DNA of 64,000 bases, taken from the sequence record OR677401; one strand, written 5' to 3'. Both the position numbers and the translations under genes were made by a program. Shown piece after piece: positions 2,564 through 3,082 of the stretch (position 1 is the stretch's first letter; each line of letters begins with the position of its first letter). The notes beneath the pieces were generated by a model. It saw nothing but the letters and a program-made list of their open reading frames with translations, was not told the DNA's origin and ran no database searches. The stretch is from Escherichia phage LQ5.

Positions 2564-2571
2564 TATAAATA
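2564..2571 (+). promoter_or_regulatory. T4 late promoter TATAAATA upstream of lysozyme gene
   Basis: exact TATAAATA followed by hairpin tacctcc/ggaggta that contains the SD of gene e. Confidence 0.7.
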
Positions 2572-2593
2572 CCTCCTATACTCAGGAGGTATT

Positions 2594-3082
2594 ATGGATA
2601 TTTTTGATATGTTACGTCAAGACGAAGGTCTTGATTTAAATCTTTATAAAGACACTGAAGGTTATTGGACTATTGGTATTGGCCAATTGATTACTAAGAA
2701 CCCTTCTAAAGATGTTGCTCGTGCTGAACTTGATAAGCTTATGGGTCGAGTTTGTAATGGTCGTATTACTATGGCTGAAGCCGAGCAACTCTTTAATCGA
2801 TCGGTTGAAAATGCTCGTAGAGCTATTCTGCGTAATCCTAAATTGAAACCTGTTTATGATGTATTGGACGAAGTTCGTCGTTGTGCACTGATTAATATGG
2901 TATTCCAAATGGGTGAAGCAGGTGTAGCAGGGTTCACTAACTCTTTACGTATGCTCCAACAGAAACGTTGGAACGATGCGGCAGTTAACCTGGCTCAATC
3001 CCGTTGGTATAAACAAACTCCTAATCGTGCTAAGCGTGTTATCGCCACCTTTAAAACCGGCACATGGGCTGCTTATAGATAA
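2594..3082 (+). CDS. e: lysozyme (endolysin, T4 e family)
   Basis: near-collinear with T4 lysozyme ([17 protein letters not shown] ... [30 protein letters not shown]). Confidence 0.95.

Follow-up and report, generated by a model that had tools for sequence, protein, structure and literature searches.

The endolysin gene e of this phage is very probably (at roughly 88%) controlled by a promoter-choice translational switch orthologous to that of T4. In the early and middle phases of infection, RNA polymerase would read through the same-strand gene block up to nudE, yielding an RNA that carries both arms of a hairpin whose 10-bp stem would hide the GGAGG of the Shine-Dalgarno (SD) sequence and the spacer that leads to the AUG; docking of the 30S subunit would then be blocked and no lysozyme made. 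After the onset of replication, polymerase modified by gp55, gp33 and gp45 would recognise the late box TATAAATA at 2564-2571 and initiate at about 2577-2578, and the late RNA would begin past the 5' arm, leaving the stem unable to form, the SD free and lysozyme translated late only. Three parts of this scheme are ones that we infer: where the late RNA starts, that this phage makes early read-through RNA, and how strongly translation is affected.

The nudE-e junction and its genes

The window (the whole stretch of DNA analysed, 64 kb) is 95-99% identical to the JS98-like phages QL01, PSD9, MX01 and WG01 and belongs to a JS98-like Dhakavirus of the Tevenvirinae. Gene e (2594..3082, + strand) encodes a T4-type soluble lysozyme (endolysin) of 162 aa (Pfam Phage_lysozyme, E 9e-13; 74% identity to T4 e), and the corresponding gene is annotated as e or endolysin in JS98, PSD9 and others. 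It is followed in synteny by ipIII and denV and preceded by an orthologue of nudE (2114..2563, + strand; NUDIX hydrolase, 149 aa; Pfam NUDIX, E 7.5e-15; 59% identity to T4 NudE), the final gene of the same-strand block upstream of e. The ipIII orthologue (3170-3766) and the two ORFs that come consecutively after it (4307-4666 and 4675-4932) share the N-terminus MKTYKEFIAE / MKTYQEFITE (repeat family D3), a start that looks like, and presumably resembles, the N-terminal capsid-targeting sequence of T4 internal proteins. Two components of the late transcription machinery are encoded in the window as well, gp33 lying outside it: an orthologue of gp55, the late sigma factor reading TATAAATA (24367..24921, + strand; tblastn with T4 gp55, 79% identity over 186 aa, E 2e-96), and an orthologue of gp45, sliding clamp and late-transcription activator (30608..31303, + strand; tblastn with T4 gp45, 59% identity, E 8e-87), the activator role of gp45 being documented for T4-type late transcription (PMC2988020). 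No tRNA genes were found in the window.

The earlier note had placed TATAAATA at 2564-2571, directly after the nudE stop, and it was read at exactly those positions. On the + strand the junction reads CTCTTT TGA TATAAATA CCTCC TATACTC AGGAGGTATT ATG GAT ATT, the TGA stop of nudE (2561-2563) abutting a T4-type, gp55-dependent late box (2564..2571, positions -13 to -6) that matches the consensus exactly. The final 4 nt of the box are nt 1-4 of the hairpin 5' arm AAUACCUCCU (2568..2577), the anti-SD strand of a perfect 10-bp inverted repeat; a 6-nt loop AUACUC (2578..2583) follows, and then the 3' arm AGGAGGUAUU (2584..2593), which holds the SD GGAGG at 2585-2589 and the entire SD-to-AUG spacer. 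The start codon ATG of e lies at 2594-2596, and the late box ends 22 nt upstream of it. At 2577-2584 the sequence TATACTCA is the counterpart of the second box of T4 and is not a late box. In T4, NudE.1 is encoded by the gene that ends directly before the late promoter of e, and its catalytically dead form is reported to delay lysis by about 15 min (2026 preprint, bioRxiv 10.1101/2024.04.04.588121).

With the first T of a T4 late box at -13 (PMC2988020), +1 is predicted at 2577, where the 5' arm ends, or else at the adjacent purine A2578 (2577..2578, + strand). An RNA from 2577-2578 would be without 9 or all 10 of the 10 nt of the 5' arm, and since such a late RNA would start beyond the 5' arm, the stem could not form. 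Just downstream of late boxes A+T is preferred (PMC2988020); the G+C-rich CCUCC that follows the box here runs counter to this preference, which argues for selection on pairing.

Predicted folding and the possible source of read-through RNA

All energetics given here are ViennaRNA predictions at 37 °C. The perfect stem joins 2568-2577 with 2584-2593 across the 6-nt loop at -14.1 kcal/mol, and the same hairpin was both the minimum free energy (MFE) and the centroid structure in all contexts folded, from 30 to 250 nt; at 90-250 nt it also dominated the ensemble. A hairpin of 7 bp at 2570-2591 holding the SD of e had been proposed; the SD does lie inside the hairpin, but TACCTCC (2570-2576) and GGAGGTA (2585-2591) form only the core of a longer stem of 10 bp at 2568-2593. 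The further proposal that read-through RNA sequesters the SD is borne out by folding, with a predicted probability of the SD being unpaired of 0.00 and a predicted cost of 14-15 kcal/mol for opening the e initiation region from -12 to +6. In RNAs starting at 2576-2580 no stem is possible and opening of the ribosome-binding site (RBS) is predicted to cost 3.7-4.5 kcal/mol, a difference between early and late RNA of about 10-11 kcal/mol by folding. The SD of the late RNA is engaged in a weak alternative pairing with a U-run in codons 3-5 (probability unpaired about 0.2), with opening still at about 4 kcal/mol. A search with the covariance models of Rfam 15 gave no match at E <= 1 in 2300-2900.

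The switch presupposes an RNA that crosses the junction from upstream. The ORFs between 609 and 2563 all lie on the same strand as e and abut or overlap, a scan found 0 terminator-like sites in 1-4400, and a search of the + strand over the 2.5 kb that the window holds ahead of e gave neither sigma70-type nor MotA-type promoters, so that any read-through must originate further upstream. PSD9, which is 98.6% identical, has its nearest strong early-type promoters (TTTACA-17-TATAAT) about 6.7 kb upstream of e, and the interval from these promoters to e is filled by uninterrupted, tightly packed same-strand ORFs with no convincing terminator. Early read-through RNA across the e junction is thus plausible, as we infer from this arrangement.

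A stable, G+C-containing stem directly after a stop codon could also be an element of an RNA end, either a terminator or 3' stabiliser of the nudE unit or a structure protecting the GGAG from RegB or RNase E, the more so as GGAG is the target motif of RegB (PMC3014915). We regard this as highly unlikely. The stem has no U-run, its 3' arm runs into the AUG and the scan of 1-4400 was empty of terminator-like sites; it is moreover the pairing of the SD, not a stem with a U-tract, that is conserved in all 16 leaders compared below. The stem could in addition keep RegB away from the GGAG, yet this would leave the embedded late promoter unexplained. As a terminator proper the hairpin was rejected, the U-tract being absent.

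The proximity of the nudE stop, only 5 nt from the stem, raises a different explanation, namely that the hairpin does hide the SD but that relief comes from translational coupling with nudE or from RNA processing in the loop, with TATAAATA incidental; that the motif is not enriched in the window would agree with this. A ribosome terminating at the nudE stop could, going by the size of a ribosome footprint, transiently melt the outer base pairs. The position of the box is, however, unchanged in 16 leaders representing at least nine genera, even where no nudE lies upstream, and all five exact boxes in the window stand at ORF junctions. In T4, moreover, late 5' ends map to late promoters, and translation of the early RNA is poor despite the preceding nudE (PMC3014915). 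We therefore judge coupling or processing very unlikely as the main route of relief; coupling with nudE could at most act as a minor leak, and it does not explain the retention of the box where nudE is missing.

Conservation of the leader and expectation by chance

For the comparison, leaders were collected from IMG/VR loci and GenBank phages, giving 16 distinct box-bearing leaders that span at least nine named genera plus four large contigs (Tequatrovirus, Mosigvirus, Dhakavirus, the VR5 and VR25/VR26 groups, Kanagawavirus, Winklervirus, Karamvirus, Jiaodavirus and Gelderlandvirus among the sources). In each of the 16, only 0-1 nt separate T/A/G-ATAAATA from a downstream CUCC, CUUC or CCCC anti-SD, and each forms a hairpin, with -8.7 to -16.3 kcal/mol for the segment from box to AUG. 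With the leaders folded in their real flanks, the computed opening cost is 11-19 kcal/mol in the early RNA vs 1.5-7.6 kcal/mol in the late RNA, and the predicted late RNAs lose 5-12 nt of the 5' arm. Mineola, STP4-a and L020 retain the box with a gene other than nudE ahead of e. A second late box occurs in Tequatrovirus leaders only; the JS98 loop has TATAATCA. Neither box nor hairpin was found at the non-T4 lysozyme locus of ECGD1 (Justusliebigvirus), and the lysozyme fold alone thus does not entail the feature.

Pairs were counted in an SD-anchored table built on the MFE folds of the individual sequences, because a MAFFT alignment of the leaders misaligns the ACCUCC class against the ACUCC class and was left unused for this purpose. 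In this table the four core bases of the SD are paired in 16 of 16 leaders. One full compensatory change was seen (VR25 has GGGG/CCCC vs GGAG/CUCC elsewhere, i.e. U-A to C-G), along with several C-G to U-G wobble changes, U-G pairs being used by T4 and ZX14. Strict covariation goes no further than that single compensatory pair, as one arm is also under constraint from the promoter and the other from the SD. The stems are lengthened in two ways: eight leaders, this window included, carry an outer extension AAUA/UAUU, and the other eight have the inner extension UAU(C)/(G)AUA alone, which is mutually exclusive with outer lengthening, a few leaders of the outer group (e.g. APCEc01) gaining one or two inner pairs too. 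A stem that shifts while the SD stays in place is the pattern expected if RNA pairing is under selection.

The same comparison bears on the idea that the inverted repeat acts at the level of DNA, as an operator whose bound protein occludes the late promoter in the manner of I-TevI autorepression. Repeat and promoter box do share 4 bp, and T4 introns have operators overlapping late promoters (PMC2988022). Between genera, however, the stem shifts relative to the promoter yet always covers the SD, as fits a constraint on RNA rather than a fixed protein site, and G-U pairs, which would be mismatches in DNA, are tolerated in T4 and ZX14. An operator is accordingly an extremely unlikely reading of the repeat, and pairing in the RNA of the e leader is the one we retain.

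More distant e-like lysozymes (40-65% identity) from the IMG/VR loci L021-L036 have their SD in hairpins of quite different sequence, about 60 nt upstream of the ATG. The stem of L021 reaches 14 bp and -18.4 kcal/mol, the leader hairpin of L031 and L033 is GCCUCUUAUU...AAUAAGAGGC, and in L034-L036 the 5' arm carries CCUCAUAAAUA; some leaders of this set are without a clear TATAAATA.

In an A+T-rich window one may ask whether a strong SD beside an A+T-rich motif has simply produced a functionless palindrome by chance. The motif count would allow it, for TATAAATA occurs 5 times in 64 kb against 7.1 expected and is not over-represented, a number that fits a window corresponding to a mostly early region of the T4 map. 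The whole-window count was dropped as evidence, being at chance, and placement relative to ORFs was used in its stead: all five copies lie in or straddle the non-ORF part, which makes up 8.6% of the window, and each is within about 100 nt of the start of an ORF on its own strand. Perfect hairpins of at least 10 bp (loops of 3-10 nt) number 3 in the window vs 0.45 in dinucleotide shuffles, and that of e falls exactly on an SD abutting a late box. Among 78 SD-bearing genes of the + strand, the opening energy of e (14.8 kcal/mol, -12 to +6) ranks 6th, the median being 5.2 kcal/mol. The arrangement is, finally, conserved across genera with changes that preserve pairing. We give a chance palindrome next to no probability, and conservation in relatives excludes coincidence.

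Promoter-linked hairpins in the window and known systems

Three more late boxes in the window are followed by hairpins. At 20295-20336, the ATG of a gene (20334-21404) for a SegE-type GIY-YIG homing endonuclease of 357 aa (PF19835, E 5e-34) is closely preceded by a hairpin of 11 bp, AUACCCUUAUC / GGUAAGGGUAU (-15.0 kcal/mol), which in turn directly follows a AATAAATA late box; this would be the late-promoter and hairpin control known from T4 homing endonucleases in a new gene copy. The soc orthologue (49603-49836; Pfam Soc, E 9e-20) has TATAAATA at 49564, 31 nt upstream of its ATG at 49603, and a 12-bp stem joins the sequence right after the box to the AUG region (49564-49605, -8.5 kcal/mol). 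At 60969-61017, a AATAAATA box is directly followed by a perfect 10-bp hairpin UGUAUGGUAC/GUACCAUACA (60977-61002, -14.9 kcal/mol), with the SD AAGGAG of the next ORF (53 aa) just outside the stem, an arrangement resembling the seg43(25) case in PMC2988022.

A comparable pairing was observed at early promoters. The window contains cassettes of the form GTTTAC - 17 nt - TGATACTAT - AGACCTATCAAC - SD - ATG (family D1), and in eight of its 12 sigma70-type cassettes the spacer between -35 and -10 is complementary to the downstream gene's SD, strongly at 3785-3849, 6596-6661, 14986-15049, 22369-22432 and 56215-56276 and more weakly at 10503-10568, 13586-13648 and 44747-44808. Stems are up to 11 bp long, with energies of -17.6 to -21.1 kcal/mol, their arms show covariation from one copy to the next (CUCCUGUAG/CUACAGGAG, CUCCGGUAG/CUACUGGAG, CUCCUCAUG/CAUGAGGAG), and three cassettes rank in the top four of the 78 genes for RBS opening energy. 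In the cassettes at 310-372, 45696-45758 and 57956-58022 a palindrome is instead centred on the -10 element, with the SD unpaired (for example AGGTCTATAG-GTGTGATA-CTATAGACCT at 323-350). Three further sites (13550-13579, 49842-49871 and 44731-44758) carry a near-identical G+C stem-loop with a T-run, AGGAACCTTCGGGTTCCTTTTTT, directly followed by the GTTTAC of an early promoter; the three sites are PeSL-type composites of terminator and promoter.

The logic of the spacer/SD cassettes would be as for e but with sigma70, the SD being exposed only on RNA from the gene's own promoter. They differ in position from PeSL elements, in which the stem-loop lies upstream of the promoter (PMC4122927), and no description of the spacer/SD stem was found in the literature searched. 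One may go further and propose a genome-wide design rule in which an anti-SD in or next to the promoter makes downstream translation depend on the promoter used, with e as one instance and e, soc and the SegE-type endonuclease gene as the late-promoter cases on offer; we hold this tentatively and think it rather doubtful. If real and undescribed, the rule would mean that early genes are translationally insulated from read-through RNA.

Among known systems, T4 gene e is the direct counterpart. There, the inhibitory structure has been demonstrated, lysozyme synthesis is reduced about 100-fold and the late 5' ends have been mapped (PMC3014915, citing McPheeters et al. 1986, NAR 14:5813; the T4 facts used here are taken from reviews). 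A look-up of the expected T4 start coordinates in the supplement of a T4 dRNA-seq/NAD-capture preprint gave nothing usable. The T4 leader, TAA TTT TATAAATA CCTTC TATAAATA CTT AGGAGGTATT ATG, has the same succession of nudE stop, TATAAATA, anti-SD, SD and ATG at the orthologous junction, the box likewise overlaps the 5' arm by 4 nt and AAUA likewise pairs with UAUU before the AUG. The hairpins have -13.3 kcal/mol in T4 vs -14.1 kcal/mol here, and the computed RBS opening falls from 16 to 4 kcal/mol between early and late RNA in T4 and from 15 to 4 kcal/mol here. The match to the delayed-translation mechanism of T4 that the earlier note had drawn is hence upheld by orthologous genes, the same layout and the same computed energetics. 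The two leaders differ in that T4 has two tandem TATAAATA, the second within an 8-nt loop, and a stem of 11 bp including a U-G pair, whereas here a single box is joined to a perfect stem of 10 bp with a 6-nt loop.

The same logic has been described in T4 for I-TevI, I-TevII, I-TevIII and segB and in Aeh1 for mobE, where an RBS hairpin forms only on upstream early or middle transcripts and the late promoter is sited so that the late RNA omits the inhibitory strand (PMC2988022); as genes and sequences are unrelated to e, this is a case of analogy, not orthology. T4 soc and gene 49 have been grouped with e as genes with helices sequestering the SD or AUG (PMC3014915), and in the soc orthologue of the window the stem covers the AUG region and is weaker (-8.5 kcal/mol), whereas that of e covers the SD.

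For close T4-type relatives, Uzan and Miller (2010, Fig. 5A, PMC3014915) predicted e leaders whose late promoter lies within the stretch coding for the 5' strand of an SD-sequestering structure, the same claim as is made here; JS98 is not named in their text. The e switch in this phage is an already-known mechanism at an orthologous locus, a classic coupling of translation to promoter choice that would prevent premature endolysin from early read-through RNA, and it raises no new question. Its intact presence in Dhakavirus and in at least nine genera of Tevenvirinae confirms selection on the switch, and the arrangement can serve annotators as a dependable mark of where late transcription of e begins. 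The only new point on e is that leaders commonly have one late promoter, the double promoter of T4 being a peculiarity of Tequatrovirus.
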